Part shown: one piece after another, positions 1 through 25,610 of the stretch
How the letters are laid out: each line of letters opens with the position of its first letter
How positions within the stretch are numbered: position 1 is the stretch's first letter
Virus record (IMG/VR): IMGVR_UViG_2734482790_000004
DNA length: 64,000 nt
Strand: one strand, 5' to 3'
From: a virus
Lineage: Duplodnaviria > Heunggongvirae > Uroviricota > Caudoviricetes
Position numbers and translations under genes: made by a program
The notes under the pieces: model-generated
Told to the model about the DNA's origin: nothing
Databases searched by the model: none
The model's input: the letters and a program-made list of their open reading frames with translations, nothing else

Positions 1-3000
1 ATGCCCGTCGATTTTCTGACCACTGAGCAGGAACTGAATTATGGTCGCTATGTTGCAGAACCCAATGACGTGCAGCTGGCGCGCTATTTTCATCTTGATG
101 AGCGGGATCTTGCCTTCATTAACCAGCGGCGGGGAAGGCATAACCGGCTGGGAATTGCGCTTCAGCTCACCACCGCCCGTTTTCTGGGCACCTTTCTGAC
201 AGACTTAACCCGGGTTCTGCCAGGTGTTCAGCAATTTGTCGCGGTGCAGCTTAATATTCGCCGTCCGGAAGTCCTTACCCGCTACGCAGAACGGGTTACC
301 ACCCTCAGAGAGCATACTGCGCTGATTAAGGAATATTACGGTTACCATGAATTTGGTGATTTCCCCTGGTCTTTCCGCCTGAAGCGCCTGCTGTACACCC
401 GCGCATGGCTCAGTAATGAGCGACCCGGCCTTATGTTTGATTTTGCCACCGCGTGGCTGCTTCAGAATAAGGTCCTGCTGCCCGGAGCAACCACACTTGT
501 ACGTCTCGTCAGTGAAATACGCGAACGGGCAAATCAGCGGCTGTGGAAGAAACTGGCCGCGTTGCCGGACAGCTGGCAGACCGCCCGCGTGACGGAGCTT
601 CTGGACATTCCTGAGGGGCAGCGTACTTCACCGCTGGAGCAACTGAAAAAGGGACCGGTCACCGTCAGCGGCCCGGCATTTACCGAAGCGCTGGAGCGGT
701 ATATCCGGCTGCGAAACCTGGAATTTTCCCGACTGAATTTTACCGGTCTGCCTGCTATACAACTGCGTAATTTGGCCCGTTACGCAGGCATGGCGTCGGT
801 AAAATATATCGCGCGAATGCCACAGCAGAGAAAACTGGCCGTACTCACAGCATTCGTTAAAGCGCAGGAGACTGCGGCGCTGGATGAGGCCGTTGATGTG
901 CTCGATATGCTGATACTGGATATCACTCGTGCGGCGAAGAAAACGGGGCAGAAAAAACGGCTCAGGACGCTTAAAGATCTTGATCGTGCTGCGCTAATAT
1001 TGGCGCGGGCATGTTCATTGTTGCTGGATGAACAGGCTGACGATGCTGAACTGAGGGAGACCATATTCAACAGCATACCGAAAAGCAGGCTGGCAGAATC
1101 CGTCAGCAAGGTAAATGAGCTGGCCCGGCCTCAGAACAACAATTTCCATGACGAAATGGTGGAGCAGTACGGGCGGGTAAAGCGCTTTCTTCCGGCGGTA
1201 TTGCGCGACCTGCATTTCCAGGCAGCGCCAGCCGGAGAACATACGTTGTCCGCCATTCATTATCTGACCGAACTGAACGGCTCGAAAAAGCGCATCCTGG
1301 ACAATGCGCCTGAACATATTATTACCGGCCCCTGGAAACGCCTGGTATACGATGCGGAGGGCCGGATACAGCGTGCCGGTTACTCGCTTTGTCTGCTGGA
1401 GCGCCTTCAGGATGCACTACGTCGAAGGGACATCTGGCTCGAAAACAGCGATCGCTGGGGAAATCCCCGCGAGAAGCTGTTGCAGGGGGAAGAATGGCAG
1501 GCTCAGCGGGTCCCCGTTTGCCGGGCGCTGGGACATCCCACTGATGGACATAAAGGCGTGCAACAGTTGGCGGTCCAGCTAGATGAAACCTGGAAAACCG
1601 TCGCATCCCGCTTTGAAGGAAATGCGGAGGTTCATATTTGCCATGACGGTAAACATCCTTCCCTGACTATCAGCAGCCTGGAGAAACTGGAGGAGCCAAC
1701 ATCGTTGCATCGTCTCAACAGTCGGGTAAGGCTGCTACTCCCGCCAGTAGATTTGACGGAACTGTTGCTTGAAATAGATGCCAGAACGGGATTTACACGT
1801 GAGTTTACGCATGTCAGTGAATCCGGGGCCCGGGCACAGGATCTGCACATCAGCCTGTGCGCGGTCCTGATGGCAGAGGCCTGCAATATCGGGCTGGAAC
1901 CGCTGATAAAGCACAATATACCGGCGCTGACGCGCCACCGGCTTAGCTGGGTAAAACAGAATTACCTCCGGGCAGAAACGCTGGTCAGCGCCAATGCCCG
2001 CCTGGTTGATTTTCAGTCCACACTGGAGCTTGCTGGCCGCTGGGGTGGTGGCGAAGTGGCTTCAGCTGATGGCATGCGCTTTGTCACGCCGGTGAAAACC
2101 GTCAATTCAGGACCTAACAGAAAATATTTTGGTTCCGGACGTGGCATCACCTGGTACAACTTCGTCTCTGATCAGTACTCTGGATTCCACGGCATCGTTG
2201 TCCCCGGCACATTACGAGATTCCATTTTTGTGCTGGAAGGCCTTCTGGAGCAGCAGACAGGGCTGAATCCGGTTGAGATCATGACAGACACAGCCGGTAC
2301 CAGCGACATTATTTTTGGCCTCTTCTGGCTGCTGGGATACCAGTTTTCCCCCCGGCTTGCCGATGCCGGTGAAGCGGTATTCTGGCGAGTGGATAAATCG
2401 GCAAATTACGGTGCACTGGACGAACTGGCACGTGGTTGTGCCGATCTGTCGAAAGCCGAGGATCAGTGGGATGAGATGATGCGAACCGCCGGTTCGCTGA
2501 AACTGGGCACCATTCATGCTTCAGAACTCATTCGCTCTTTGCTGAAAAGCTCGCGCCCATCAGGGCTGGCACAGGCGATCATGGAAGTGGGGCGCGTCAA
2601 CAAGACGCTGTACCTTCTTAATTATATTGATGATGAGGATTATCGTCGGCGGATCCTGACGCAGCTAAACCGGGGGGAAGGCCGCCATGCTGTGGCGAGG
2701 GCGATCTGCTACGGGCAGCGCGGTGAGATCAGAAAGCGCTATCGTGAAGGTCAGGAAGATCAGCTGGGGGCACTGGGCCTGGTCACTAACGCAGTGGTAC
2801 TGTGGAACACACTTTATATGCAGGAAGCCCTGAGCTGGATACGCAGTAATGGAGAAGAAATCGGGGTTGAAGATATCGCCCGGTTGTCCCCACTGATGCA
2901 CGGGCATATCAATATGCTGGGGCATTATACGTTTACGCTACCGGAGGATATTTTGAAGGGGGAACTGAGAGAACTAAATTTCAATTTAAACAATGAATTA

Positions 3001-3009
3001 ACTTCTTAG
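1..3009 (+). CDS. tnpA: Tn3-family transposase TnpA (1002 aa)
   Basis: ORF begins at window position 1 with ATG; N-terminus MPVDFLTTEQ and about 1000-aa length are typical of Tn3-family TnpA; stop codon lies inside the terminal inverted repeat. Confidence 0.9.
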   Translation: MPVDFLTTEQELNYGRYVAEPNDVQLARYFHLDERDLAFINQRRGRHNRLGIALQLTTARFLGTFLTDLTRVLPGVQQFVAVQLNIRRPEVLTRYAERVTTLREHTALIKEYYGYHEFGDFPWSFRLKRLLYTRAWLSNERPGLMFDFATAWLLQNKVLLPGATTLVRLVSEIRERANQRLWKKLAALPDSWQTARVTELLDIPEGQRTSPLEQLKKGPVTVSGPAFTEALERYIRLRNLEFSRLNFTGLPAIQLRNLARYAGMASVKYIARMPQQRKLAVLTAFVKAQETAALDEAVDVLDMLILDITRAAKKTGQKKRLRTLKDLDRAALILARACSLLLDEQADDAELRETIFNSIPKSRLAESVSKVNELARPQNNNFHDEMVEQYGRVKRFLPAVLRDLHFQAAPAGEHTLSAIHYLTELNGSKKRILDNAPEHIITGPWKRLVYDAEGRIQRAGYSLCLLERLQDALRRRDIWLENSDRWGNPREKLLQGEEWQAQRVPVCRALGHPTDGHKGVQQLAVQLDETWKTVASRFEGNAEVHICHDGKHPSLTISSLEKLEEPTSLHRLNSRVRLLLPPVDLTELLLEIDARTGFTREFTHVSESGARAQDLHISLCAVLMAEACNIGLEPLIKHNIPALTRHRLSWVKQNYLRAETLVSANARLVDFQSTLELAGRWGGGEVASADGMRFVTPVKTVNSGPNRKYFGSGRGITWYNFVSDQYSGFHGIVVPGTLRDSIFVLEGLLEQQTGLNPVEIMTDTAGTSDIIFGLFWLLGYQFSPRLADAGEAVFWRVDKSANYGALDELARGCADLSKAEDQWDEMMRTAGSLKLGTIHASELIRSLLKSSRPSGLAQAIMEVGRVNKTLYLLNYIDDEDYRRRILTQLNRGEGRHAVARAICYGQRGEIRKRYREGQEDQLGALGLVTNAVVLWNTLYMQEALSWIRSNGEEIGVEDIARLSPLMHGHINMLGHYTFTLPEDILKGELRELNFNLNNELTS

Positions 3010-3042
3010 CGTACGTTTTCGTTCCATTGGCCCTCAAACCCC
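3005..3042. mobile_element. Tn3-family terminal inverted repeat (38 bp), transposon end
   Basis: Reverse complement reads GGGGTTTGAGGGCCAATGGAACGAAAACGTACGCTAAG, closely matching Tn3/Tn1000-type 38-bp IRs (GGGG...ACGAAAAC...TAAG); overlaps the tnpA stop. Confidence 0.7.
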
Positions 3043-3115
3043 TTGTATCGGATTTTCCCTGTTACTCAGCAAATCCGCAGAAGTTACGTAATAAATCTCG
3101 CACAGGATGTGTCAG

Positions 3116-3718
3116 ATGACGAAAAATAAGTATGCAACGGTCGATTTTGACCAGGTTAATGAAAAGGGGCTGAAATCCCTTATCGCGGCGATCAATAAAA
3201 CCGGTGTTACGGTAATTGAGGTTGACTCCAGCAACCGCGCAACAACGAAAGATGGCGTTAAAGTTAAAACCGCAAAGCTGGTTCTTAACGACGGACAAAT
3301 TCTTGCCATACAGGTAAACGATACTGGCGATATATCGTCTGTGAAGCTGAATGGAAAAGCTATTCCTAACGCTCAGTCGCCGGATATCAAGACGCTTGGT
3401 ACCGTCATGGGGCAAGCGGCCAGCAAAAACTCCGCAAAATTCCAGAAATCACTGATCGCCAAAGCGAAACGTGTTGCCAATCCGGTAGACAAGAAACCGG
3501 CAGTAAAATCCAACTTTCAGCGCCTGCAAGAGGCAAAACAGCGGAATGCTCAGGTGGTTGCCGCTTATAAGTCCGCGCAGAATTCGGTGTCTTTCAATCA
3601 ACAGCAGATCACTGATTTGCGGGCGAAGCTGGATAAGGAGACAGGCCGACTCAATAACGAAAAGGCCCGAAATGGCGAACTCAAACGCCGTCTTAAGCAA
3701 CTGAAAGCAGGAAATTAA
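3116..3718 (+). CDS. hdf: first gene of darA operon, Hdf-like (ORF track start 3107; second ATG at 3116 has an AGGA RBS)
   Basis: Sits immediately upstream of the 639-aa DarA ORF with 1-nt spacing; position and size fit P1 hdf (recalled, not aligned). Confidence 0.5.
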   Translation: MTKNKYATVDFDQVNEKGLKSLIAAINKTGVTVIEVDSSNRATTKDGVKVKTAKLVLNDGQILAIQVNDTGDISSVKLNGKAIPNAQSPDIKTLGTVMGQAASKNSAKFQKSLIAKAKRVANPVDKKPAVKSNFQRLQEAKQRNAQVVAAYKSAQNSVSFNQQQITDLRAKLDKETGRLNNEKARNGELKRRLKQLKAGN

Positions 3719-3719
3719 C

Positions 3720-5639
3720 ATGGAACAGTTCAATATCAATAAAGGGGTGACGATCAAGCCTGGGCTTGACGTGCTTCCCCCGCCAGTGACTGATGATGAA
3801 TATCGCGCATTAATGGCCGGTGAGGACCGCTATCTGATGACGGAATCCAACACCCTGGAGGAAATCGAGGCTACGTTCTTCTATGACACGCCGATCCACT
3901 GGTGTGCTACGGATTTACTGGAGGCGATTAGTTCTACTCGTTTGCAGTTACACCGGACCATGCAGGCATTTGTCCGGGCATTGAACCAGAAGCTGAATGG
4001 TACCGGAATCTCTGCGGGGAGTGATAAAACGGGGGATGTGGCCCAGAGCGGCGCGCGCGCGATCGGCGGTGCTGAAATTGGCCGGGCACGTAACGTTAAC
4101 GGGCTGCCGGTCCTGCCAGCCATTATTCCGCTCAGTGATGGTCAGACTATCAGCATTCTGTTTCATAGCCCGACAGCGGAAAACCGGATCACCAATAGCG
4201 ATACGCTGGTTGCTTTCCAGTTCTTACTGAATAAAAAAGACGTTACTCACACCGTTGCTCCGATGAGTGGACGTGATATGACGCTGGCGCAGGTCACCAT
4301 GAAACTTGCCAACCTTGCAGAGAAAAACTCGGCAAAATTTCAGCGTGCGCAGAAGAAGAAAAAAGCCCTTGTTGATGAAATAACCCAACTACAGGCTGAC
4401 AGTGACCAGAAAGAGGATGCCATGAGCGACCTCGCGGATCAGGTGGCAGCGGTAGAAGGGCAGAAGGTAGATCTGGAGCAGAAAATTAACGCTGTTGCAT
4501 CGGAAGCGGATTCTCTTTATGAAGAGAATGAGCGTTTGCAGACGGAGATTGATCAGCTCAATCGAACTGGTGGGCGCGAAACCATTGCTCCTGCGGGGAT
4601 GACTGGTGGACACTCTCGCGCGATGACGGATCGCCTTGCAAGTATCAAAAATCGTATGCATATGAACGGGGAAGTGACGCTCAGTAATGGTGCATCAATG
4701 AAGCAATTCATTGAGGACGGTGAAGGGTATATCCAGTTAACCGATTCGGATGGCAGCGTGTACATGATCAAGGCTAAATCCATACAGGGTGTGGACATGG
4801 CAGATGCGATCGGCAAGCTGTTTAAAGCCTATAAAGCGGGTAATGTATCGGAATACCTGGTCCAACCAGAAGAACATAAACCGGAAAACGTCGAACCTGA
4901 ACCAGCGGAGGATACCGGTAGCTCTTCGCCTGAACCAGAAGTCTCTGTAGGTGCATATCGATATGCCCTGCAAATGCGTCCGGCGGCCCCTGGCGCAATA
5001 CCTGAAGGTAACAAAGCAATTCTGCCGCGCCCTGATGAAGGTGACCCGTATTATGAATATGCACGCTACGGCATTGCTACTTACGATACCCCGCTTTCTG
5101 ATCAGCAAATGAGTGAGTACGACCTGAAGTTATTGCCTCGCGAGGATTCTTTCGACTTCCTGGCGAAGACACTTACTAATGGTCCGTTTGGCAAATATGC
5201 ACAAAAAGCTCTGGAGCTGGCCACCAGCTCACCAGACGAGTTCCGCGTAATGCTGAAAACTCAGTTTCAAAAAACTTTCCCCAATATTGCGTTTCCGGGG
5301 GGCGCTGGCACCGAGAAAATGGTGCAGAGCATGATCAATGCATTGCAGGCCGAAGTCGGTGAGATTACTCAGCCAGAACCTGCCCCGGCACAGCCTGATG
5401 AAACGGTTAGCGAAGCAGATGCAGAGGCTAATAAAGCCATTGAATATCTCAATAACGTGATGGATATGCAAAGCACTGACATGGCGGAGATCCGTAACGC
5501 CCGGGGTAATGTCCGGGAAGCGATTGCAGCCCTTCAGGCTGCCGGGCGTTTTGAGGAAAACGAAGAGCTGGTTAATGGCGCTGCTCGCCACCTGGCTGAT
5601 CTGCTGGTAGCAATCCAGAAAGCGGGGGTAGCGGCATGA
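3720..5639 (+). CDS. darA: DarA-like antirestriction/capsid internal protein (639 aa)
   Basis: 639-aa ORF in operon with downstream small and large genes; size and context match P1 DarA. Confidence 0.75.
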   Translation: MEQFNINKGVTIKPGLDVLPPPVTDDEYRALMAGEDRYLMTESNTLEEIEATFFYDTPIHWCATDLLEAISSTRLQLHRTMQAFVRALNQKLNGTGISAGSDKTGDVAQSGARAIGGAEIGRARNVNGLPVLPAIIPLSDGQTISILFHSPTAENRITNSDTLVAFQFLLNKKDVTHTVAPMSGRDMTLAQVTMKLANLAEKNSAKFQRAQKKKKALVDEITQLQADSDQKEDAMSDLADQVAAVEGQKVDLEQKINAVASEADSLYEENERLQTEIDQLNRTGGRETIAPAGMTGGHSRAMTDRLASIKNRMHMNGEVTLSNGASMKQFIEDGEGYIQLTDSDGSVYMIKAKSIQGVDMADAIGKLFKAYKAGNVSEYLVQPEEHKPENVEPEPAEDTGSSSPEPEVSVGAYRYALQMRPAAPGAIPEGNKAILPRPDEGDPYYEYARYGIATYDTPLSDQQMSEYDLKLLPREDSFDFLAKTLTNGPFGKYAQKALELATSSPDEFRVMLKTQFQKTFPNIAFPGGAGTEKMVQSMINALQAEVGEITQPEPAPAQPDETVSEADAEANKAIEYLNNVMDMQSTDMAEIRNARGNVREAIAALQAAGRFEENEELVNGAARHLADLLVAIQKAGVAA

Positions 5640-6001
5640 CACTATCAGCTATTGAGTTAATGGATCTCAGCGATAAGTTGGATGCTCTGATGTCCAAAGC
5701 GGCTACCGCGAGTGGCATGGAGTTGCTGGATATCAGCGATGAAATCGACCAGATCATGCAACAGATGGGGTACGGCGCGTCCGGCGGTGGTAGTGGCGAG
5801 GAAAAACAACCTTCGGAACATGATGGTGTGCCAAAACTGGTTGCTGATTTCCTGGCTGATAAATTCGTCGATCAGAGCACCGATGCATTTATCGGTACCT
5901 TGCAGGATTTGAGTCAATATGTTGGCACATACATCGACCTGGACCAGGTTAAACAGCACACGGCGGCATGGATAGCCGCCAACATTAAAGAGGCAGCATA
6001 A
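5636..6001 (+). CDS. ddrA: DdrA-like protein (121 aa)
   Basis: ATGA overlap with darA stop; operon position matches P1 ddrA. Confidence 0.5.
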   Translation: MTLSAIELMDLSDKLDALMSKAATASGMELLDISDEIDQIMQQMGYGASGGGSGEEKQPSEHDGVPKLVADFLADKFVDQSTDAFIGTLQDLSQYVGTYIDLDQVKQHTAAWIAANIKEAA

Positions 6002-6013
6002 GGCGTAACAGGG

Positions 6014-9001
6014 ATGAGCTTAAGCGATCAGGTGGTAATGGCCACCAGCATAGAAACGCTGATCGAGCTGCTAAAGAACTTGCCCGATTATGGGCGGGTT
6101 TCGTATGTGGTGACAGCGAAGGGAGACGAGGTAAAAACAGCGTTTGATATCGTCGATGCCTCAGCTCTTTTGGTATCCAATACTCTGGATGGGAAAATTA
6201 ATCCTGACTATCCCCAGGAACTTCAACCGCGCGACCGGACCCGCGCATCCAGCCTTCTTCAGGTTAACCAGATATCCAAGGATTTGCGGCCTGCTCAGCT
6301 TACCGATTCCGGTCTATCCAGCCATGGCGCGCCGATAATTGGTGAGGACAATGCCGTTGAGTCAGGTAATGGACGGACCATGGGGATCATTAAAGCCTAT
6401 CAGGACGGCAATGCGGATCGGTATCGTGAGTACCTGATTGATCATGCGACCGAATTCGGCATACGACCTGAAAAGGTTGAATCAATGACGGCTCCGGTAC
6501 TGGTGCGCCGCCGGTTAACTAAGGTTGACCGCGTTCAGTTTGCCAAGGACTCAAATATTTCTGATCTTCAGGAAATGGCAGCCAGTGAAAAGGCTTTTGT
6601 TGATGCCGACAGCATAACACCGGCGATGATGGCGCTTTTTAACCCGTCAGAAAGCGGAGATCTGCTTAGCCGCAGTAATGACACGTTTATTCGCGGATTT
6701 ATGACGCAAGTTGGTGCCACACAGGCGGCTGGCCTTGTAACTGAAGATGGGCGACCAACACGGCAACTTGTAGACCGTATACAAAACGCGATCTTTGCCA
6801 AGGCATATAAGGATGCGCGCCTGGTAAGGATGGTTGCAGAAGAACCTGATCCGGATATGCGTAATGTTCTGACGGCGCTTAATGCGGCAGCCAATGATTT
6901 TGTCCAGATGCAGGCTTTGTCAGGAGAAGCGCACAAGCAGGCTGTGACAACTATTGTTGATGGCATTGAGACAGCGGATAGCCTCGATAAAAAGGCGCTG
7001 GCGGCATTGAAAGATGCGGTAGACCTGGTAAGGCAATCGAAGGAGTCAGGCCAGCATATTACCGATGTTATTGCTCAGGGGGATATGTTCAGCGAAACGG
7101 CCCCGGAAGTGAAAGCACTCGCGTTGTTCATCGTCGCGAATAACCGTAGCGCGAAGCGTATGGCCACCGCCTTTAAATTGATGGCTCAACGTATCAATGA
7201 TGAGTTACAGCACCAGTGCCAGGCGCTGGGGGATATGTTTGGCGGTGGTGATGTGTCGTTACAGGATATCCTTCGCCAGGTGTCTCAGGAACTGGAAAAC
7301 GAAGGCATGCAAGGGATATCCGGCGGTCTTTTCGAGTCCGTTTCCGGCGGTAGTTACAACGGTGTTGCTCCATATACCAGTTTGCTATTACATCGGGCAT
7401 CCGGCATCAAAGACATTATTCATCTGATCAGGCTGCTTTCCCGTACAGATCCCCAGGATGAACAGCTTGTTCAAGTGCTTGCGCATTTTGTTCGAATGCC
7501 TGTTGCCGACGTGAAAAAATGGTGCCGATTATTCGGTATCAGCAATTCGTTACTTCGCGGCTTGTTAAATCACGCATCCTCCCTTGGGCGCGATGGCTTT
7601 GACGAGATAGCGCAGGCGATAAAAAACGGAGATATGCCACCAGCTATTGACTGGTTTTCCATTCGCCCAACCAGGGTGAAAGCATTCCTTAGCGCGGCGC
7701 ATTCGGCATCACCATTGGCAGAAATGGTTCAGAGGTTGTCGCTCATATTCACAGACCATACCGCGTTGGGTGATCTGACTCTGGACGAGATGAAAGAAGC
7801 CTCCATTCAGTGGGCCGATCAACAAAATGAGGTTAACTCAGACTTCTTGCCAGCATTCAGGAAGGCCGTTAGTAAAGCGGATGATGCCCGTGGAATTCTG
7901 AAGGCATTTAAGGCATTGCAAAGTCGGGTTAATAAACATGTCGGTGATATCGATGGGGTAACGGCGGAAGGCAGGGATATCCTTAAAGAGCACGGCATAA
8001 CGCCAGAGTTTATTGATGAGATCAGGACGGATATGCAGCGTGAGGTCGTATCGTCCCTGCAAATTGTAGCCAGAGCATTGGCGGATGCTAATCCGAAGAG
8101 TGCGGCCATTGTTAACCGGGTTATTGGTGATATTGAAGCATCGGAGGGCATGGGGGCGCTGAAACTCTTCCTTTCGCGAGCGTTTAATCCTAACGGCAAT
8201 ATTCTCCCTGGCATTATTGGTGAGGCTAAAAGGTATGTCAGTGAAGAAGAACTTGAGCAGCTTGACCAACTACTTAAGCGATTCTCATATAACCCGCAGA
8301 CACGCTGGCAAATGAATCAGCGAAGTATGGGTTCGGTCCACGAGAAAGTGTTATCTGCCATGAACAGTGCGATCGCAAACTCATCCGTATCTGAAGAAAA
8401 AGCTCTTGAGTGGGCCGACTCTTTTATCACGGAAGAAGTGGAAGAAGCCCGCGCTGGACAGAATGGTGGGATAGACCTGCGCAAGGAACTTGCTGATATT
8501 TATCGCCTGACCGGCGGTAAAATTTCGACCTTATCAAAGGTGGTTCACCACCAGGGAAGGGCATATGCAAATCTTAATGGTGTTGTTGCTGTCAATTTGA
8601 ACGATGAAAATGCAAGTGCACTGTGGCACGAGCTGGGTCATCATCTTGAGTACAGTAACCCTGGTTTGTTAGAGAAAGCCCGGTCATTCCTGAAGGCCAA
8701 TGTTGAAGGGGATAAGCCATCTTTCGTTAATATCGGTGGGCGTGGCAAGCCTGAATGGTGCTTCAGATCTCGATTGAGTAATATTTATATGGCGAAGGTA
8801 TACCCGCCAGCCTCAGTGAGTAACTCCGGGAAAATTCGGCAGAAAGCACCGACTATTTCAAAAACATCAGCAACGGAAGTATTCTCTATGGCTCTTCAGT
8901 TGTATCATGACAAAGAGGCCGCTGCCGCATCACTGATGAATGGTGACGGATTGCTGGAACTGTTATTAGGTGTGGCAAAGGAGCTAAATAATGCAGATTA
9001 A
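6014..9001 (+). CDS. ddrB: DdrB-like large protein (995 aa) with HEXXH motif
   Basis: Operon position and size; contains WHELGHHLEY (zincin-like HEXXH) at about nt 8627-8641. Confidence 0.55.
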   Translation: MSLSDQVVMATSIETLIELLKNLPDYGRVSYVVTAKGDEVKTAFDIVDASALLVSNTLDGKINPDYPQELQPRDRTRASSLLQVNQISKDLRPAQLTDSGLSSHGAPIIGEDNAVESGNGRTMGIIKAYQDGNADRYREYLIDHATEFGIRPEKVESMTAPVLVRRRLTKVDRVQFAKDSNISDLQEMAASEKAFVDADSITPAMMALFNPSESGDLLSRSNDTFIRGFMTQVGATQAAGLVTEDGRPTRQLVDRIQNAIFAKAYKDARLVRMVAEEPDPDMRNVLTALNAAANDFVQMQALSGEAHKQAVTTIVDGIETADSLDKKALAALKDAVDLVRQSKESGQHITDVIAQGDMFSETAPEVKALALFIVANNRSAKRMATAFKLMAQRINDELQHQCQALGDMFGGGDVSLQDILRQVSQELENEGMQGISGGLFESVSGGSYNGVAPYTSLLLHRASGIKDIIHLIRLLSRTDPQDEQLVQVLAHFVRMPVADVKKWCRLFGISNSLLRGLLNHASSLGRDGFDEIAQAIKNGDMPPAIDWFSIRPTRVKAFLSAAHSASPLAEMVQRLSLIFTDHTALGDLTLDEMKEASIQWADQQNEVNSDFLPAFRKAVSKADDARGILKAFKALQSRVNKHVGDIDGVTAEGRDILKEHGITPEFIDEIRTDMQREVVSSLQIVARALADANPKSAAIVNRVIGDIEASEGMGALKLFLSRAFNPNGNILPGIIGEAKRYVSEEELEQLDQLLKRFSYNPQTRWQMNQRSMGSVHEKVLSAMNSAIANSSVSEEKALEWADSFITEEVEEARAGQNGGIDLRKELADIYRLTGGKISTLSKVVHHQGRAYANLNGVVAVNLNDENASALWHELGHHLEYSNPGLLEKARSFLKANVEGDKPSFVNIGGRGKPEWCFRSRLSNIYMAKVYPPASVSNSGKIRQKAPTISKTSATEVFSMALQLYHDKEAAAASLMNGDGLLELLLGVAKELNNAD

Positions 9002-9296
9002 AATCGCAGCGCCATTAGGCGGAGATGCCATTATCGAATTTGATGATAATGAAGAAGTTTCCGGGCGTTTAAGCATTATCTCCGGTGACATTACCGAGGA
9101 CATGATCGCTGAAGCCATAGCTGGGGCAAATCCCAATAGCTATATGGGATTCGTTAACACCCTTGATGCTCCCGCAAGTGATGTTCTCCGAACGCTGCAT
9201 CTTTACGCTGGCTGGTTTGTCGATTGGCCAGCAGTAGAGGGTGGCGATGAGGACGACGATGATTTTGGGGATCATGTAGACCAGATCGTATATTAA
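8991..9296 (+). CDS. acidic hypothetical protein, distal gene of darA operon (101 aa)
   Basis: Overlaps ddrB stop; D/E-rich C-terminus. Confidence 0.4.
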   Translation: MQIKIAAPLGGDAIIEFDDNEEVSGRLSIISGDITEDMIAEAIAGANPNSYMGFVNTLDAPASDVLRTLHLYAGWFVDWPAVEGGDEDDDDFGDHVDQIVY

Positions 9297-9425
9297 CTCC
9301 CTGATAGTGCACAAATAATCTGTTCTGATATGTTAATTGTGTACTTAAAGTAAACGCGTAGTGGCTTGCTTTAGGTTATGGAAGCAAGCTATTGCCTAAT
9401 ATGTTAGATCAAAAAATTTTAATTT

Positions 9426-10214
9426 TTGCGTTTCGCTCACCACATATTGAACACTTTAGCCGATCTTTTAATTCTTCCAGAGTCAATCCTGAAGCTACAG
9501 TTTGGTGGAGATACCTGGACTCAGACTGATGTATTTATGACCCAGCGTGCTACTGGCGTCGCGACCTATCGTAACAATGATTTCTTCGGCTTGGTTGATG
9601 GTCTGAACTTTGCTTTGCAGTATCAGGGTAAAAATGATAGTGCTGCAAAAGTGAACAACTGGAAAGGCCGCGACGTAGTTGAATCTAATGGTGATGGCTT
9701 CGGTCTGTCAGCTACTTATGATTATGAAGGATTTGGCATTGGCGCAACTTATGCAAAATCTGACCGTACTGATGGACAGGTATCCTATGCTAAAGCCCCT
9801 CTGAATCTGAATGCCTCTGGTAAAACTGCTGAAGTATGGGCTACGGGCCTGAAATATGATGCAAACAACATTTACCTGGCTACAACTTATTCTGAAACTC
9901 AGAATATGACAGTCTTCGGTGATGACCATATCGCGAACAAGGCGAAAAACTTTGAAGCCGTTGCTCAATACCAGTTTGATTTCGGCCTGCGTCCGTCCAT
10001 CGCTTACCTACACTCTCGCGGTGAAAATATTGGTGCGTTCGGTAACCAGGATCTGGTTGAATACATCGACGTGGGCGCGACTTATTACTTTAACAAAAAT
10101 ATGTCCGCTTTCGTTGACTACAAGATCAACCTGATTGATGAAAGTGAATTTACCAAAACATCTGAGGTTGCAACCGACAACATCGTTGCTGTTGGTATGA
10201 CCTACCAATTCTAA
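9426..10214 (+). pseudogene. 5'-truncated OmpC/OmpF-family porin gene fragment
   Basis: Translation from about nt 9500 has the porin C-terminal beta-barrel pattern and ends VAVGMTYQF (porin C-terminal signature); N-terminal part of a roughly 360-aa porin is absent; ORF-track start MRFAHH is not a real porin start. Confidence 0.75.
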
Positions 10215-10289
10215 TTTTGGTAGGTAAGAATATGCGGGAAGGGAGTGATGTCACTGCCCGCATATAGGTGGCACCCTCATGCCACCTTT

Positions 10290-10314
10290 GAAGAGGCAAT
10301 AAAATTGCCTCTTC
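10290..10314 (+). terminator. stem-loop after porin fragment (GAAGAGGCAAT aaa ATTGCCTCTTC)
   Basis: Perfect 11-bp inverted repeat followed by a weak T tract. Confidence 0.4.
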
Positions 10315-10369
10315 TCAATTTAACTTCATGTTATTTATTACCTTTTTATTAATTTGAAACTCTATTGTT

Positions 10370-10396
10370 GGGGCGCTTTGTTGCGCCCATTTTTTT
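10370..10396 (+). terminator. rho-independent terminator
   Basis: GGGGCGC tttgtt GCGCCC followed by ATTTTTTT. Confidence 0.7.
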
Positions 10397-10447
10397 ACAC
10401 CAATTAGGTAAAGTTATTTTTAAGTAATCGAGCAACTTTCAGCCCTC

Positions 10448-10936
10448 TCAAAATGGAATATCGTCTTCAAAGTCCATTGGAGGTTCGCTATTGGCGTTGC
10501 TCTGAGGTTTACTGCCACCGCTGTATTGCTGGTGGTTTTGAGGTTGGTTTGACTGCCCCCAGCCATTTGAGAATTGTGAATCGTCGCGGCGAGCGCCGAT
10601 CATTTGCATGGTGCCGCCCTGGCTGACGATAATTTCCGTCGTGTAACGATCTACACCGGCGTCATCTGTCCACTTACGGGTTTTAAGTTTCCCTTCGATG
10701 TAGACCTGAGAACCTTTTCGTAAATACTCACTCGCAATTTCAGCAAGTTTCCCGAACAAAACGACTCTATGCCATTCTGTTTGCTCTTTCTGTTGGCCCG
10801 TTTGCTTGTCGCGCCATGATTCATTTGTTGCGATGCTTAGTCTTCCGACCGTTCCGCCATTTGGTATATACCTGATCTCCGGGTCTTGCCCCAGGGTACC
10901 AATCAGGATGACTTTGTTTACACCGCGTTGTGCCAC
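10448..10936 (-). CDS. ssb: single-stranded DNA-binding protein (162 aa)
   Basis: OB-fold SSB sequence with acidic C-terminal tail DFEDDIPF. Confidence 0.9.
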
Positions 10937-10956
10937 TTTTCTTACCCAATAAAATA

Positions 10957-10973
10957 AATTAATTAGAGCAATA
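10957..10973 (-). promoter_or_regulatory. C1 operator-like site (AAATTAATTAGAGCAAT)
   Basis: 16/17 match to reverse complement of P1 C1 operator consensus ATTGCTCTAATAAATTT; in ssb/lyz intergenic region. Confidence 0.55.
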
Positions 10974-11105
10974 ATGTATATCTTTGAAACGTAGCTAACA
11001 AGTGATTTGCATTATCCTGTGTCTTCTAAAGGGATCGAGTCAGTCGGTATTGGCTGTGAATGGGTGTTTGTCCTGGAGCGTAAAAAATTCGCTTATGAGG
11101 TCTTT

Positions 11106-11663
11106 ATGAAGGGAAAAACAGCCGCAGGAGGCGGTGCAATTTGCGCTATCGCGGTGATGATTACCATCGTGATGGGTAATGGCAATGTGCGAACCAACCA
11201 GGCGGGGCTTGAGCTGATTGGTAACGCTGAAGGTTGCCGACGTGATCCATACATGTGCCCGGCGGGGGTATGGACTGACGGGATCGGTAATACACACGGG
11301 GTAACGCCGGGTGTGCGAAAAACCGACCAGCAAATCGCCGCTGATTGGGAAAAGAATATCCTGATCGCTGAACGCTGTATTAATCAGCACTTTCGGGGCA
11401 AAGACATGCCCGATAATGCCTTCAGTGCAATGACAAGCGCGGCATTCAATATGGGATGCAATAGCTTACGGACCTACTACAGCAAAGCGCGAGGCATGCG
11501 AGTCGAAACGTCCATCCACAAGTGGGCGCAGAAAGGGGAATGGGTAAATATGTGTAACCATCTCCCTGATTTTGTGAACAGTAACGGCGTGCCCCTGCGA
11601 GGTTTAAAGATTCGCCGTGAAAAAGAACGCCAGCTTTGCCTGACGGGGCTGATCAATGAATAA
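11106..11663 (+). CDS. lyz: SAR-type endolysin (lysozyme), 185 aa from MKGKTAAGG start
   Basis: N-terminal Gly/Ala-rich weakly hydrophobic signal-anchor-release segment followed by a T4-lysozyme-like domain; ORF-track start at 11007 is probably upstream of the real start. Confidence 0.8.
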   Translation: MKGKTAAGGGAICAIAVMITIVMGNGNVRTNQAGLELIGNAEGCRRDPYMCPAGVWTDGIGNTHGVTPGVRKTDQQIAADWEKNILIAERCINQHFRGKDMPDNAFSAMTSAAFNMGCNSLRTYYSKARGMRVETSIHKWAQKGEWVNMCNHLPDFVNSNGVPLRGLKIRREKERQLCLTGLINE

Positions 11664-11910
11664 ACTCCGGCAGCTCCGCCGACTTTCGACAATGAAGTTA
11701 TCGCTGGCGGCGATAGTTTTCGACTCGATTTTCATGGCGGTATATGTGCTCAATGAGACGTGGCCACTGGAACCGCTATTGTATGCTGGGCTTCGACTGT
11801 GCCTGACATTTTTGAGCATGGCTGCAAGATTGATGCAGCAGAAAGAAACCGCTTCAGATTGTCCACGCCGCGCGGTGCGCAAATATATGGCACGCAGGCG
11901 AAGGCGATAA
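11656..11910 (+). CDS. small membrane protein overlapping lyz stop (84 aa)
   Basis: ATG overlaps the last lyz codons; hydrophobic segments; followed by a terminator at 11924-11949. Confidence 0.4.
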   Translation: MNKLRQLRRLSTMKLSLAAIVFDSIFMAVYVLNETWPLEPLLYAGLRLCLTFLSMAARLMQQKETASDCPRRAVRKYMARRRRR

Positions 11911-11923
11911 TAGTTAACGATAA

Positions 11924-11949
11924 CCCCGGCAGCCGCCGGGGTTATTTTT
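11924..11949 (+). terminator. rho-independent terminator (CCCCGGC agcc GCCGGGG TTATTTTT)
   Basis: GC stem plus T-run; lies between convergent lyz-side and head-gene operons. Confidence 0.7.
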
Positions 11950-11954
11950 GGTGG

Positions 11955-14685
<2,731 letters not shown>

Positions 14686-14751
14686 TTAATTAGAATAATT
14701 CGCATCGTGTTTGAACGGAATTTAACACTAGTCACTTGTTAAGGATTACCA

Positions 14752-17700
14752 ATGAACAAGCTATCTATGGGTGTGTTTCGCTGTTCAAGTGTCAGCGAAA
14801 TATTGAAATACATTAGGGCAATAACATCTCACCGAGCGCCGATTAAATACGGCGTGGAAAAGGTGGAAGGCAAAAGCTATGACCGACTGCGCCGGGAGGC
14901 GAATCAGAAGGCGATAGATTTGCTTAATTCGCTGGTGGACGGCGCGACACTGACAGATGAACAGCGCCAGATCCTGGCCGGGTACACTGGTGAAGGCGGC
15001 ATTGGCGGGTCCGTCTCCGAATATTACACACCAAAGCCTATCGCTGAAGGTGTCTGGGAGATCATGAAGCTCTACGGCGCGGACGTAGGTAACACTCTGG
15101 AACCATCGGCGGGAACCGGCGTTTTTAATGAGACAAAACCGGTTGGTACGGTGATGACCGCGACTGAGATCAGCAGTGTTTCCGGTCGTATAAACCAGTT
15201 GTTACACCCGGAAGACAGCGTACAGATTTCCCCGTTCGAACAGCTGGCTATAAACACGCCTAACGATTCATTCGACCATGTTGTGGGTAACGTTCCGTTC
15301 GGCGGTCGTGATAACACACGCAACATCGATAAGCCTTACGCAGAAGAAACGGACATGGGGTCTTACTTCATGCTCCGCATGCTGGACAAGATAAAACCTG
15401 GCGGATTCATGTGTGTGATTGTGCCGCCGTCCATTGTTTCAGGTTCAAACATGAAACGGTTACGCCTGCGCCTATCACGGAAAGCTGAATTTCTTGGTGC
15501 CCACCGCTTGCCTACCGGTACTTTTGACGCAAACGGGACCAGTACAGTTGTTGATGTGGTGCTGATGCGCAAACATCCGGCAGAGATGGCTGAGAAAATC
15601 CCCCTGGTGGATGAAAGCACTCTCGAATCGGCAAATGTGCTTTGGCCAACGTTTATTTCTGGCAAGTGGTTTGAAAAGGACGGCCGCCGGTTTGTTCATG
15701 GCACCCAGGAAAAGGGCTTCCAGGGGCGTATTGAGGTTCGTGCCGACGGTCAGATTGATAACCAGGCTCTTAAAGCGAAGCTGATTCATCGTTTCGAAAG
15801 CCGTATCGACTGGTCTTTGCTCGATATGGCTGAACCGTCACCGACCGCAGACGTTGTTGGTGAAGGGGAAATGCGCCTGATTAATGGCGTATGGCAAAAA
15901 TATGCTGGTGGTCGCTGGATTGAAGCTGATGCAGGGAAGGAACTTAAGATCGATGCTGCCAGTTATGGCGCGGATAGCTGGGAGGCTCTTCAGCGTAACC
16001 TGACTACAACAGAAGGCCGTCTCGGCATGACATTTACCCAGATGGCAAATGTCCGCGATAAGTACACCACATCAATCAGCGACGATATGGTGCAGCTGGT
16101 GGACTGGATTAACAGCCAGCCTGAAAAATACCGTGAACGCTTGTATCGCGGGGCGATGATTGGCCGGATGTTAATTGAATATCAGGACATGAAGGCCGCC
16201 GGGCATAGTGCTGAACAAATCGAACAGCAGCGCCTTTCTCTGGTATCCCGTTTGCAGGCAGAGATTGACCGTTTTGGTAACCCCGGTCGCGGTCCGATAG
16301 CGAAATTATCGGGGAGCGGTGCGCGCGCCTGGTTTGCTTTCCGTGGTGCAATTAAGCTGGATGGCACTATTTCTGACGAGCTGACAGGAAAACTGGTTAC
16401 GCATGATTCCAGCGCCAGTTATGACTCCACCAGCTATCAGGACACCCTGCGTTATCTCTACAGTGATCTCACTCGCGATCCAATCCAGCTCGATGATTTC
16501 CGCCTTGCGTTTACCGGCGAACTGCCAGCCAGTGATGACGAGTTGCTTAATTTATTGGCCAGCACCCCTGGCATTGCGGTTTCACCGTATGGCGGGATTG
16601 TTCCGTTCGCCCGCGCCACCAGCGGCGACATTAACGAGATAGTGGCTCCAAAACAGGAATTCCTCGCCACGCTCCCCGACGGTCCAGTAAAGAACAACGT
16701 CCTTAATCAGCTGGCAGCGATCGAAGAGAAGCGCATCAAGACGCCAGCAGAGAATATCCGCTTTAAGCTCAATAGCCGTTGGTTCGACCGTTCCGTCATT
16801 CTGGAGTTTTTGCAGGAAAACGGCTATCCGGATCTGCGCTATGTGCAGTCAGTGCAGCTGGAAGGCGACGAAATGGTTTCTGACACCTATCACGGTGGTG
16901 ATGGCCTGTTCGTCGGGCACCGATACGGTGTCGTCCAGCGTAAGGATAAAGAAACAGGCGAGATCCGCTACGAGTGGGACCGTAAATCAGGTGAAAACGC
17001 GACCGGGTTCCCGGCACAGCTGGAAAAGTATCTCAATGGTGCGCGTATCGGTGGCAAAGATAGCGCGACGGCGAACGGCTACCGCGAGCAGATGGCACTG
17101 CTTGAGGACCAGTTCAATAAGTGGATCAAGACGCACGATCGCTACGATGAGCTGGTTGCTAAATACAACGATGTGTTCAATAGCAATATCCCGTATGAAC
17201 ACTCTGGCGATCCGCTTGGGTTGAAGGGATTAAGCGGTAAGCGCCAGCCATTTGATTACCAGAATAGCGAGGTGCGCCGACTGTCCGAAGATGGGCGCGG
17301 CATCCTGGGCTTCGGCACCGGGCTGGGTAAAACCACGACCGCGCTGGCGCTTGAGGCGTTCAACTATGAGAACGGTCGCTCCACCCGTACTGCGTATGTA
17401 GTGCCTAAATCAGTGCTGGAAAACTGGTATTACGAAGCAAAAGAATTCCTGAGTGAAGAGGCATTCAGTAACTACCTGTTCGTCGGTCTTGATGTGCTGA
17501 TGGATGGCGATCAGATTCGCCAGGTGCAGGTGCTCGATGAGAACGGTAAACCTGTTCTTGGTACTGATGGCACTCCAGTTATGCGCGATGCTCTTAAGCT
17601 GGCAGATGAAGCCACTATCACGGCGCGGATGAACGCGATCCCGCACTCAAATTACCGTGCAGTCGTGTTTACCAAAGAACAATACGCCCGCATTCCGCTA

Positions 17701-20700
17701 CGTGATGACACCGTAGATGAGCATGCACAGGATATGCTTTATGACTTCGTTGCCGCCGGACGCGTAGCCAGCGCAATGGACTCCGACTCCCACCGCAAAG
17801 AGGCCGCGCGTCGCCGGGTATTGTCGGAGTATTCAGATACCGGCACCGAAAAAGCAGAGAAGTATCCGTACTTTGAGGATATGGGCTTCGATAGTGTGAT
17901 CGCCGACGAAGGCCACAACTACCGCAATAGCTATAAAAATGGTCGCGAAGCGTCACAGCTAGCCTATCTGCCCACCAGCGCGGTAGCGCAATCGGCGCGA
18001 GATATGGCAATTAAAAACGCGTACCTGATGAAAAAGAATGGTGGGCGCGGGCCGGTTCTCCTGACTGCAACGCCAGTCGTTAACACCCCGATCGATGCAT
18101 ACAACATGCTTTCTCATGTTCTGCCGAAGGAATACTGGCAGAACATGGGGATCTACGGTCCTGATGACTTCGTTAAATTCTTCGGCAAGACCAGGCTGGA
18201 AACGGTACAGAAAATTAGCGGTGAAGTTGAAGAAAAAATGGCGCTGGTGGGCTTTGAAAACCTTGATGCGCTGCGCGGTATATTCCATCGCTGGGTAACG
18301 CTTAAAACGGCGGAAGACGTTAAGGATACCGTGGAGATCCCGGAGCTGGACGAACACCAGCAGGATGCACCACTTACTGAAGAACAACTGGCGGCGTATG
18401 AAGAATTGCGTCAGCAGGCGGAAGCGGCGGCCAAAGCCAACAATGGCGTAACGACCTCGGTCAATGAAGACGGCGTGATTGAGCACGAGAAAGCCCGTCC
18501 GATCTTCTCAATAATCAGGGATATGGACCGCGTATGTACTGACATGGACCTGTACTATCGCCGGATCACCTATCGTTTCCTGCCGGAGTACGCCGATGCG
18601 GTGCAGCAGCTGGCGGACAGTTTGCCTAAACAAGCCACCAGCGAAGACGACGACAGTGATGATTCAATCACGCAGCAATCGCAATACTCCCTGATAGATA
18701 AGGGCGAGTTTATTCAGTTGCAGGTTCCGGAAGCGTTCGAGCAGGAAGTGAATAAGCGCCTGGCCAGGTTTGGCATTGACGAACAGACCGTAACTCACCC
18801 CGTTACGCCCAAATACGCGAAGCTGATTGCCACGCTGAAGGAGTTTTTCCCGGAAGGTAAGCAAATCATCTTCACCGATGAAAAAACGCAGCACCAGAAG
18901 CTCAAGCGCATTATCTGCAATGCTCTTAACCTTGAACCTTCAAAGGTGGGGATACTGAATGCTCAGACGGTTGCCGAGGCAGGTAAAACCGGTAAGAAAC
19001 TGAAAGCGGTTAAACCGCCGAAAGAGTTACCGGATGAACCAACAGATGCACAGATAGCGAAATACAACGAGCAAATGGCTCTGTATGACGCCTATATCGC
19101 GCAGCAAAATGAAATGTCGTTGGGCGGTCTGGAAAAGATTGCAGCCGACTTCCAGGAGGGCCGGACTCCGATCATCATCTGCAACAAAAAGGCAGAAGTG
19201 GGTATCAACCTGCATCGAGGAACGACTGACATCCATCATCTGACGTTGCCATGGACTCCAGCCAGTATTGCGCAACGAAACGGTCGCGGTGCCCGAGTTG
19301 GCTCCAACCGTGCAAGCGTTCGCGTTCACTACTACTGCGGCAAGGGGTCTTTCGATGAATACCGACTGAAGACGCTGAAGCGTAAAGCAGGCTGGATCTC
19401 CGATATCCTCCGTTCAGATAAGTCAGAAATGGAGAACGCCGACGCCAACGATATGATCGAAATGCAGATGTATACCGCGAAGGATGACGGCGAACGTCTG
19501 GCAATGATGCAGGTTCAAATGGATAAGGCGAAAGCTGCGAAACGCGCTCGCCAGAAAGAACAGGCTACTATCGACCTTCAGAACTACATCAAGGCGCAGC
19601 ACGCAGCTGGTGAGGATGTGGAGGTACTTACCGCTGAATTGGAGCGAAGCAAAGCGGAACTTGAAAAGACCACCGCCGACGTCGCCAAATTCAAACAGGC
19701 GGTAATGGCCAAAGCAGCTGATAACGCAGACTGGAAAGCCCGCTGGGGTAGCGTCCATCACACAGACCGTATGTTGTTAGCACAGTATCGCGCGTCGTTG
19801 AAAAGCGCCATTCAGCGCAAGGCTAATATCTCTCAGGCCATCTCCCGCTATGAGAAATTATTGAACCGTACTCAGAAGGCCGCGACGGATATCAAACGCC
19901 TGCGCCCGCTGGTGGAGGATGCAATAAATAAAGGCATTCTGGATGTTGATCCTGATCTGGTTAACCATGCGAATGAGTTCCTTGTTATCGGCGATCGCTC
20001 ATGGCGTGTAGGCCAATACTATGATTGTGCCGGTGATATCGTTCGCATTAAGTCGCTGGACTTCGACAGCCAGCGCGCAGACGTGGAGATCATCTTTACC
20101 TTCAAAGGCACCAAATCGGGTAACTGGGATGTGAAGACGCTGGATAAACAGGTTGATGTAACTCCCGATGAAGATGCTGTTATGCAGAAAATCAGTGGTG
20201 GCGTCTCCATCGCCGGGATTAACGACATCGTTTCCTGTGACGATTTCTACCGTTTCCAGCAGCGCGGCATGATCAAAATCACTGACTCATACGGCGTTCA
20301 GACTACAGAGTCAGGCTATAGCATTGATTTTGTTGGTACCTATACGGACCCACTGAAGCATGCGGTTTACCCGGATCGCCGTGACGGCGCGCTGAAGTCG
20401 TCAATTGCAAAATGGGTGCTTGGTATGATGTCGGAAGGGAATAACCGCCAGATCCGTTCGGCAGAAGCATTCCTGGTTGAACTGTTTGGCTCCAATTATG
20501 GCGATGTAATCGCGTCATACGGAGATACGCTATCCCCTGAAGCACTTCAGGAGAAAATAGCGGATGCGATCGCCAGAATGCCGGAGAAAACAAGCCAGGG
20601 GGCTACTCGTAACGGGGATTCTGAACTTGAAGTCACCAATGCCATTTTCGGTACCAATGAGTTCCGGGCGTCAGATTATGAGATCACCACAGCACAGTTT

Positions 20701-21519: not shown

Positions 21520-21552
21520 CAGGAGCGCCCGGTTCGCCGGGCGTCGCATAAT

Positions 21553-21993
21553 ATGGCCACACTATCTGATACAATAAAACCGAATAAAACATATCTTGAG
21601 GCGGTACTCCGTACAGCGTTGTTAGGAAAGACAGAAGACGAATACGTTGATTTCTTCCTGTCAGGGCTACGCGGGCGATTACTGAAAAATCCCCGCCTGT
21701 ACCGCAGCTATGGTCCATACTGGCCGGAAATTAAAAAATTATTACTGGAGCGCGGTTATGGTAATTTCGGTCGTCTCGTTGACCGTGACGTTCGCAAAAT
21801 TTACCGTTATGACCGCCCGGCGCTAACACTCATAGCCGCGACGCTCTACAGCCAGGAGCGTTTTGATAATGGTCAGATATACTCAGCCTGGCATTTACTG
21901 CCAGTGCCTGAAGAAGTTGACGACCAGGACTATGAGTTTGAGTCTTACGATTTGGAAGTTGAAGCCTTGGCACAGTCTGGAGAGAAAACTTGA
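21553..21993 (+). CDS. ulx: small protein downstream of darB, Ulx-like (146 aa)
   Basis: Position immediately after darB; symbol from recalled P1 order. Confidence 0.45.
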   Translation: MATLSDTIKPNKTYLEAVLRTALLGKTEDEYVDFFLSGLRGRLLKNPRLYRSYGPYWPEIKKLLLERGYGNFGRLVDRDVRKIYRYDRPALTLIAATLYSQERFDNGQIYSAWHLLPVPEEVDDQDYEFESYDLEVEALAQSGEKT

Positions 21994-22238: not shown

Positions 22239-22242
22239 GAAC

Positions 22243-22270
22243 TCTCCGGCCTAGGGAGATTAGGCCGGAG
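22243..22270. terminator. perfect 10-bp inverted-repeat hairpin (CTCCGGCCTA gggagat TAGGCCGGAG)
   Basis: Lies between convergent lxc and the SIR2-like gene; no strong T-run. Confidence 0.45.
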
Positions 22271-23585: not shown

Positions 23586-23641
23586 TACTTACTCCATTTA
23601 CTTATAGTTCTACGGAGAAGTATACCCTAATGCATTGACGT

Positions 23642-25593: not shown

Positions 25594-25610
25594 GTGTCAC
25601 CATAAATATC

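Follow-up and report, generated by a model that had tools for sequence, protein, structure and literature searches.

An arsenic-resistance transposon of the Tn3 family in lydB of a P1-derived plasmid

How did a transposase gene come to lie beside the dar operon in P1-like DNA, and what stands on its far side? The stretch analysed here (the window, 64,000 nucleotides) opens on the first base of tnpA, so that whatever lies to the left of this gene has to be sought in other assemblies. We conclude with high confidence that an arsenic-resistance transposon inserted cleanly into lydB of a P1-derived (IncY-type) plasmid, in one transposition event that left a simple insertion. The gene that it interrupts, lydB, is a lysis-timing or antiholin gene.

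The transposon and its arsenic-resistance cargo

Positions 1 to 3042 of the window are the right-hand 3 kb of a transposon, made up of two features:

1 to 3009, plus strand: tnpA, a full-length Tn3-family DDE transposase of 1002 aa, identical to WP_001556712.1
3005 to 3042, minus strand: IRR, the right terminal inverted repeat, 38 bp, enclosing the tnpA stop; inward reading GGGGTTTGAGGG... on the minus strand

A first-pass annotation made from the letters of the window alone described tnpA as complete from position 1 and as ending inside a 38-bp Tn3/Tn1000-like repeat, and both descriptions hold. The list of open reading frames places the first base of the plus-strand frame on window base 1 and gives a product of 1002 aa; the RefSeq protein WP_001556712.1 uses the same start codon; and Pfam places DUF4158 at residues 5-172, while DDE_Tnp_Tn3 matches over its full profile at residues 587-976 (E=1e-150). 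At the nucleotide level tnpA is 99.8-100% identical to hundreds of plasmid copies. Its stop codon occupies 3007-3009, within the IRR (GGGGTTTGAGGGCCAATGGAACGAAAACGTACGCTAAG), which agrees with the IRR of Tn1000 at 37 of 38 positions; the exact IRR sequence occurs once in the window, with none expected from 100 shuffles.

The transposon body, with its resolution site and any resistance genes, had been placed to the left, and it was found there. We extended the sequence leftward with contig L003, located through an exact match to the Hdf protein and 100% identical to window 1 to 13718. L003 contains a complete unit transposon of 8,801 bp in the order IRL, arsRDABC, an arsA fragment, tnpR, res, tnpA and IRR. 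The left repeat (IRL, L003 1127 to 1164; also seen in contig L002) matches the IRR at 37 of 38 positions. The pair conforms to the Tn3/Tn1000 type, with repeats of about 38 bp that begin GGGG. TnpR, encoded in L003 to the left of the window, has 190 aa, the Pfam domains Resolvase and HTH_7, and its catalytic Ser10 in the context MRLFGYARVSTSQQ; tnpR and tnpA are divergent, and the 163-bp region between them, also left of the window, holds a res site with three subsites. In the RefSeq annotation arsR, arsD, arsA, arsB and arsC, again to the left of the window, run in one orientation and are all intact, with Pfam matches to HTH_5, ArsD, ArsA_ATPase (twice), ArsB and ArsC; AMRFinder, run on an identical copy of the transposon, called arsR, arsD, arsA, arsB and arsC at 98-100% identity. 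A hairpin lies 3' of arsC. From these genes, the cargo should provide ArsR-regulated arsenite efflux, through an ArsA/ArsB pump with ArsD as chaperone, together with arsenate reduction by ArsC.

Because L003 is identical across the overlap, and because five other assemblies agree with it, the left part of the element very likely belongs to the window's own molecule as well. Taken alone, the window shows one inverted repeat and nothing of the left side, a picture that would also fit a tnpA remnant or a one-ended element whose arrival had deleted lydA and lydB. Such a remnant is refuted for the relatives and extremely improbable here: L003, identical over 13.7 kb, has the IRL, a TTGTA pentamer, lydA, lydB codons 1-120 and the promoter LPdar, and the same left side recurs in the five further assemblies, one of them a closed circular plasmid.

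The element is a Tn3-family unit transposon of the Tn1000/gamma-delta subgroup that carries an arsRDABC operon of the R773/R46 type. Tn1000 of plasmid F (NC_002483, 4191 to 10171) likewise has divergent tnpR and tnpA, a tnpA that ends inside the IRR, and 38-bp inverted repeats, which match those of our element at 37 of 38 positions; its TnpA is also 1002 aa long and shares 91% amino acid identity with ours over residues 1-1001, its TnpR shares 82%, and its res occupies the same 163-bp region, with the site I core TTATAA and with hardly a difference in any of the three subsites. The two are nevertheless distinct: the 3.6-kb tnpR-res-tnpA-IRR modules agree at only 84% of nucleotides, and where our element has arsRDABC and the arsA fragment, left of tnpR, Tn1000 has a 2.1-kb ORF of unknown function. 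Tn1000 is about 6 kb long against 8.8 kb.

Two elements that may be the same, judged by size and organisation as published, are an arsenic-resistance transposon of 8,804 bp, unnamed, which the pQEB1 IncN plasmids have acquired (PMC11368168), and Tn6535, an ars unit transposon of Hafnia alvei FB1 (CP009706; PMC6339943). Like our element, both belong to the Tn3 family and combine a tnpA-res-tnpR core and an ars locus with 38-bp inverted repeats and 5-bp direct repeats, and the size of the pQEB1 transposon fits 8,805-bp variants of our element. A search of the Tn5403 literature for the transposon's name turned up only this unnamed 8,804-bp transposon. Tn2502 and Tn2503 of Yersinia, class II (Tn3-family) arsenic-resistance transposons that have spread among plasmids (PMC3316555), share the tnpR-res-tnpA module and arsenic resistance with our element. 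We rejected them as its identity on the basis of their arsHRBC cargo, which includes neither arsA nor arsD, and their imperfect 53-bp inverted repeats; they are 6,769 bp long, with a transposition module related to Tn2501.

The insertion site in lydB

To the right of the IRR the window continues with P1 sequence:

3043 to 3047: right-hand member of the TTGTA target-site duplication (5 bp); P1 lydB has this pentamer once at this place
3043 to 3129, plus strand: 3' remnant of lydB, with codon 120 duplicated, then codons 121-147 and the stop; overlaps the hdf start, as in P1
3107 to 3718 (alternative start 3116), plus strand: hdf by P1 annotation, intact, first dar gene 3' of the transposon; Pfam DarA_N
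3720 to 5639, plus strand: darA by P1 annotation, intact, 639 aa; Pfam DarA_N and DarA_C
5636 to 6001, plus strand: ddrA by P1 annotation, intact, 121 aa
6014 to 9001, plus strand: ddrB by P1 annotation, intact, 995 aa; Pfam ddrB-ParB
8991 to 9296, plus strand: hxr-like ORF, following ddrB

P1 homology resumes at 3043; a BLAST alignment starting at 3037 reflects a chance extension of six bases. The remnant translates as LYRIFPVTQQIRRSYVINLAQDVSDDEK followed by a stop, which is the C-terminus of P1 LydB, and its 28-aa product matches Pfam LydB. The hdf gene is 98-99% identical in nucleotides to those of P1 and P7; its start is the first ATG, at 3107, in the annotation of NC_005856, and lies at 3116 in RefSeq and OP279344. 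The distance from the end of the IRR to hdf is thus 64 or 73 bp, in line with the roughly 70 bp of the first-pass annotation. That annotation went astray in treating hdf as the first gene of the operon, since these 64-73 bp form the 3' end of lydB, the operon's second gene, and the transposon sits inside the operon.

The first-pass annotation had proposed a leftward search for a second repeat and a 5-bp duplication, and a comparison of the insertion site with P1. Both searches were productive. TTGTA stands directly before the IRL in contigs L002, L003, L005, L007, L008 and L009, and joining the two flanks through one TTGTA reconstructs an empty site that aligns with P1 lydB without a gap, at 99.5% over 200 bp. 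The insertion point is codon 120/121 of the 147 codons of lydB, and nothing was deleted. The left-hand part of lydB encodes residues 1-120, its stop codon formed by TA and the first G of the IRL. A second repeat, a cargo and a target duplication are all present, which removes both of the grounds on which the first-pass annotation would have been refuted.

These junctions also bear on an assembly artifact, in which a repeated copy of tnpA would have been wrongly joined to P1-like DNA. Short-read assemblies often break at this repeat, and contigs L010, L011 and L012 do end in or near the IRR. A chimera would not, however, duplicate 5 bp of a P1 target perfectly and also leave a gap-free empty site, and the same junctions turn up independently in other NCBI assemblies and in a record of 96.5 kb that is circular; we give this explanation hardly any credence.

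For the preferred reading, direct transposition into lydB, a mechanism can be drawn from the family. TnpA would bind the 38-bp inverted repeats and transpose the element replicatively, by way of a cointegrate and with a cut staggered by 5 bp; TnpR, a serine resolvase, would then resolve the cointegrate at the three-subsite res, leaving a simple insertion flanked by TTGTA.

Probable consequences for dar transcription

Published work describes what lydB and the dar genes do (PMC9025707, PMC10695390). All genes of the dar operon (LPdar-lydA-lydB-hdf-darA-ddrA-ddrB-hxr) and LPdar itself are present, but the operon is interrupted and the gap from LPdar to hdf has grown to 8.8 kb. The suggestion that the native upstream genes and promoter had been displaced holds with a refinement: LPdar, conserved upstream of lydA, now stands with lydA and lydB codons 1-120 some 8.8 kb upstream, and none of them has been lost.

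Late transcription from LPdar would now have to cross the ars operon, the hairpin after arsC and the opposing tnpR to reach hdf. Between the tnpA stop and hdf, simple consensus scans turned up neither a terminator-like nor a promoter-like sequence; folding of the same interval revealed no significant structure (z = 0.32). In view of these obstacles and scans, dar expression probably now comes mostly from read-through out of tnpA, which would be weak and repressed by TnpR. The window holds no LPdar-like copy at up to three mismatches to the 19-bp LPdar core on either strand, and a looser -22/-10 late-promoter pattern, whose fixed spacing may be too strict, was likewise absent throughout the window.

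One might go further, and propose that the lydB insertion was no mere passenger: with the antiholin cut short and hdf-darA-ddrAB detached from the late promoter, it would have helped a P1-like phage to become a non-lytic plasmid lineage with metal resistance, and read-through from ars or tnpA would then supply Dar anti-restriction proteins in the plasmid state, possibly in response to arsenite. We regard this scenario as unlikely.

A plasmid lineage and the wider spread of the transposon

At least six assemblies agree exactly in their junctions and over 1.1 kb of left flank, and their transposons are identical but for one SNP. This identity of junctions, flank and transposon in six assemblies indicates one insertion event, later inherited. 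The junction was present in only one of 5,426 complete E. coli genomes (GmM062), the tnpA-dar junction in none of 72,556 plasmids (PLSDB) or 50,697 phage records, and the exact tnpA-lydB junction had no match among IMG/VR viral contigs or GTDB species representatives.

GmM062, the closest and only complete relative, is 99.2% identical to the window and differs by an ompC indel. It is without P1 26684-43364, the tail-gene block, and so without lydC, cin, S, U, R, 16, bplA, pmgA, sit, pmgB, tub, pmgC and simCB; the equivalent of this block falls outside both the window and its matching contig, and that contig begins right at the corresponding IS1 boundary. Some of the junction-bearing assemblies have large deletions of phage genes, including lyz, pro and prt. 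Since the entire tail-gene block is missing from the one complete relative, the lineage appears to be a decaying, plasmid-only descendant of P1 that persists as a plasmid without forming infectious phage. At the breakpoints of a 10.7-kb inversion, inverted repeats were sought and none were found.

The transposon itself is widespread: at 99.8-100% identity, at least 160 plasmids carry it, from Klebsiella, Enterobacter, Citrobacter, E. coli and others, as do several type-strain genomes. Variants of 8,805 bp, 99.9% identical to our element, are common in plasmids of Klebsiella and Citrobacter. Its identical copies in many replicons, and the published acquisition of an 8,804-bp ars transposon by pQEB1, are indirect evidence of transposition. 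Three identical copies from other plasmids, checked for target duplications, had no matching 5-bp flanks, and so add no evidence of mobility. Non-matching flanks are typical of exchanges between replicons, and they raise the possibility that the transposon reached lydB by homologous or res-mediated recombination with a transposon-bearing replicon, as a cointegrate or hybrid, instead of by direct transposition. We consider this very unlikely, though a shade less so than a remnant or a chimera: here both flanks are contiguous P1 lydB with TTGTA on each side, the transposon is present in a single copy in this lineage, and an exchange between copies lying at different sites would leave the 5-bp flanks unmatched.

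The insertion by transposition is real but ordinary, in that the transposon, its family and the type of element that hosts it are already well described, and it involves no new mechanism. Its value lies in annotation and epidemiology, as a mark of a traceable lineage of P1-derived arsenic-resistance plasmids. It is also a further case of a phage-plasmid gaining cargo while losing phage functions: lydB is truncated and the dar operon is cut off from its promoter, lyz, pro and prt are deleted in some members, and the complete relative has lost the tail genes. Full-text literature searches returned no paper linking P1-like elements with this ars transposon. Other P1-like phage-plasmids with resistance cargo have been described, namely RCS47, SJ46, JL22 and the blaCTX-M-15 element of S. 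Typhi (PMC9600943, PMC9603915, PMC9837566). Like the window, these combine a P1/IncY backbone with a resistance module borne on mobile elements, and their dar regions are 98-99% identical to ours; their cargo is antibiotic resistance, whereas here an arsenic-resistance cargo has entered lydB.

Transposon end and target site in lydB

The left edge of the window lies within an arsenic-resistance transposon, and its right end adjoins the dar genes.

Right end of the transposon and adjoining genes (window coordinates)
1..3009, + strand: tnpA ORF, 1002 aa, its first base being window base 1
3005..3042, − strand: 38-bp right terminal inverted repeat (IRR), GGGGTTTGAGGGCCAATGGAACGAAAACGTACGCTAAG, enclosing the tnpA stop codon
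3043..3129: 3′ part of lydB, 87 bp, the last 28 codons, overlapping hdf as in P1
Start at 3107 or 3116: hdf, then darA, ddrA and ddrB, none of them truncated

The tnpA product has DUF4158 and complete DDE_Tnp_Tn3 domains (Pfam), and an end-to-end alignment gives it 91% identity to the Tn1000 TnpA carried by plasmid F. IRR occurs once in the window (0 occurrences expected by chance) and differs from the Tn1000 right repeat at one position, and from 3043 rightward the window matches P1, P7 and other P1-like elements at 98-99% identity. The first-pass annotation had described this feature accurately, from the tnpA ORF opening at base 1 and the 38-bp repeat around its stop codon to the dar-operon gene starting about 70 bp further on. 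It also placed the transposon body left of the window, where a contig matching the window has it. Contig ABWHSE010000025.1 (L003; GCA_044739115.1), located through an exact Hdf protein match, matches window 1..13718 at 100% identity and reaches 6.9 kb further left, bringing in ars cargo, tnpR, the resolution site (res), the second repeat and a 5-bp duplication, TTGTA, beside both transposon ends, 8,801 bp from repeat to repeat.

Terminal repeats in L003
1127..1164: left repeat (IRL), 1 mismatch to IRR
9890..9927: IRR

The junction of tnpA with the dar genes was found in one complete E. coli plasmid, from strain GmM062 (96,511 bp; only 99.2% identical to the window), annotated in the order lydA, a 120-aa "lysis protein," arsR, arsD, arsA, arsB, arsC, an arsA fragment, a recombinase and tnpA, with the arsA fragment and recombinase on the opposite strand. 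In L003 this fragment of a second arsA-like gene (124 aa, 5741..6115, − strand, outside the window) lies between arsC and tnpR in opposite orientation, and is probably a scar of ars cargo capture.

P1 has one TTGTA at the insertion point (...AACCCGTTGTATCGG...). The flanks joined with a single TTGTA rebuild P1 lydB without a gap (99.5% over 200 bp): the element entered by simple transposition, splitting the 147-codon lydB between codons 120 and 121. The upstream part of the gene now closes with ...INPL and the stop codon TAG, in which the G is contributed by IRL as its first base. The window could otherwise hold an isolated one-ended remnant, the junction could be an assembly chimera, or the transposon could have arrived by recombination; all three alike are contradicted by the TTGTA match on both sides, by an empty site that closes without a gap and by assemblies made independently. 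The earlier interpretation of a transposon end abutting the operon was essentially right, with the correction that the element lies within the operon, in lydB. Of the native upstream genes and promoter that it suggested may have been displaced, nothing is deleted: lydA, lydB codons 1-120 and an unchanged late promoter, LPdar, upstream of lydA are still present left of the transposon.

Six loci (L002, L003, L005, L007, L008 and L009) have their junctions in common, along with a left flank identical over 1.1 kb. Their transposons differ only by one SNP, in L007, where it splits tnpA; three further contigs stop at or within IRR. These comparisons indicate a single inherited event and no hotspot.

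Family and distribution of the element

TnpR (190 aa; Resolvase and HTH_7 domains, N-terminal Ser10 motif) is 82% identical to γδ resolvase, and the 163 bp separating tnpR from tnpA are nearly the same as γδ res; following the established layout of γδ res, we take subsite I (TGTCCGAGAATTTATAATATTTCGGACG) to adjoin tnpA, and subsites II and III to adjoin tnpR. With TnpR, res, the 38-bp repeats and the 5-bp duplication, the element has, at the sequence level, all the features that define Tn3-family unit transposons in the Tn1000 subgroup.

At ≥80% coverage and 99.8-100% identity the element is present in at least 160 plasmids of the PLSDB collection and in 11 E. coli genomes among the complete ones; type strains of Kluyvera, Pluralibacter, Phytobacter, Shimwellia and Edwardsiella carry it too. 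IncY is the replicon type of P1, and an identical copy is carried by the 125-kb K. pneumoniae plasmid pINF102.6 (CP110759.1), typed IncY, at another, non-P1-like site with gamma-mobile-trio genes on one side and a Tn7-like element on the other; the copy's 5-bp flanks mismatch. The 8,804-bp arsenic-resistance transposon newly acquired in hospital by IncN plasmid pQEB1 (PMC11368168) is very probably the same element. Tn6535, as described, is organised alike (PMC6339943); Tn2502 and Tn2503 of Yersinia, considered as names, are different elements. Neither the transposon nor this type of plasmid is new.

Lysis and dar genes in a diverging lineage

In P1, lydA, lydB, hdf, darA, ddrA and ddrB form a single late operon under LPdar, and LydB is an antiholin whose amber mutants lyse prematurely (PMC9025707); CRISPRi on lydB lowered plating efficiency to 0.02, while hdf, darA, ddrA, ddrB and hxr were dispensable (PMC10695390). 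The insertion takes 27 residues off the end of LydB, leaving the 120-aa form. The dar genes are intact, including translation signals, yet lie 8.8 kb away from LPdar. The intervening DNA holds the ars operon, which points the same way, a GC-rich hairpin directly downstream of arsC, and the arsA fragment and tnpR, which point the other way. A scan from the tnpA stop to hdf found no terminator-like or sigma-70-like sites. In this transposon family tnpA is repressed by TnpR at res, and hdf-darA would now be fed mainly by weak read-through from the repressed tnpA.

The insertion's effects on lysis and anti-restriction are largely academic, because the lineage looks like a P1-derived plasmid shedding phage functions, as judged from deletions, loss of the tail block in GmM062, and an inversion splitting dmt and gene 25. 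L005 and L011 lack the equivalents of window 5051..19765 (ddrA, ddrB, hxr, ssb, lyz, pro and prt), which leaves a 1025-aa fusion of DarA with the C-terminal part of DarB, and L009 lacks those of 6517..12217 (ddrB through pro); these deletions should abolish phage production. GmM062, the only closed relative, lacks P1 26684..43364 (lydC, cin, tail fibre genes, R, 16, bplA, pmgA, sit, pmgB, tub, pmgC and simCB). In place of the tail, baseplate and tail-fibre genes, and of cin and lydC with them, it has an O-antigen-like polysaccharide-synthesis cluster with ISKpn26 and IS1B either side, encoding a Wzt fragment, a 1240-aa methyltransferase-domain protein, glycosyltransferases, an epimerase and an acyltransferase.

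Position of the cluster
GmM062 record 14040..26272 (L033/L002), outside the window: O-antigen-like cluster

The window-matching contig begins exactly at the equivalent of the GmM062 IS1B boundary. In L006, which has intact lydB and keeps sit and bplA, a glycosyltransferase and a hexapeptide transferase lie beside lydA.

Other departures from P1

Window 46627..57702 holds a 10.7-kb segment (P1 63522..74234) inverted relative to P1, with the 3′ part of dmt, tRNAs, ban, dbn and genes 5, 6, 24, 7 and 25′. Its breakpoints fall within dmt and gene 25, both split, and it parts genes 25′-7-24-6-5 from gene 26 and its upstream region; a search for inverted repeats at the breakpoints found none. The inversion is common to the window and GmM062, where PGAP calls three fragments pseudogenes.

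Non-P1 genes in the window
9426..10214, + strand: truncated OmpC-like porin ORF, Porin_1 profile positions 105-337 only
22569..23585, − strand: SIR2_2-domain protein, 338 aa
34042..35604: hsdM
35932..36807: hsdS
36929..40045: hsdR, EcoR124_C domain

The truncated porin occupies the site of IS1, isaA and isaB in P1; a full-length 370-aa ompC is found there in L002, L006 and L008, and the truncated form in L007 and L012. The hsd genes make up a type I restriction-modification system in a 6.2-kb non-P1 segment between phd and pap, where P1 has pmgT. The SIR2_2 gene, likely a defence gene, belongs to 1.5 kb of non-P1 sequence that stands where P1 carries its res/mod (EcoP1I) locus.
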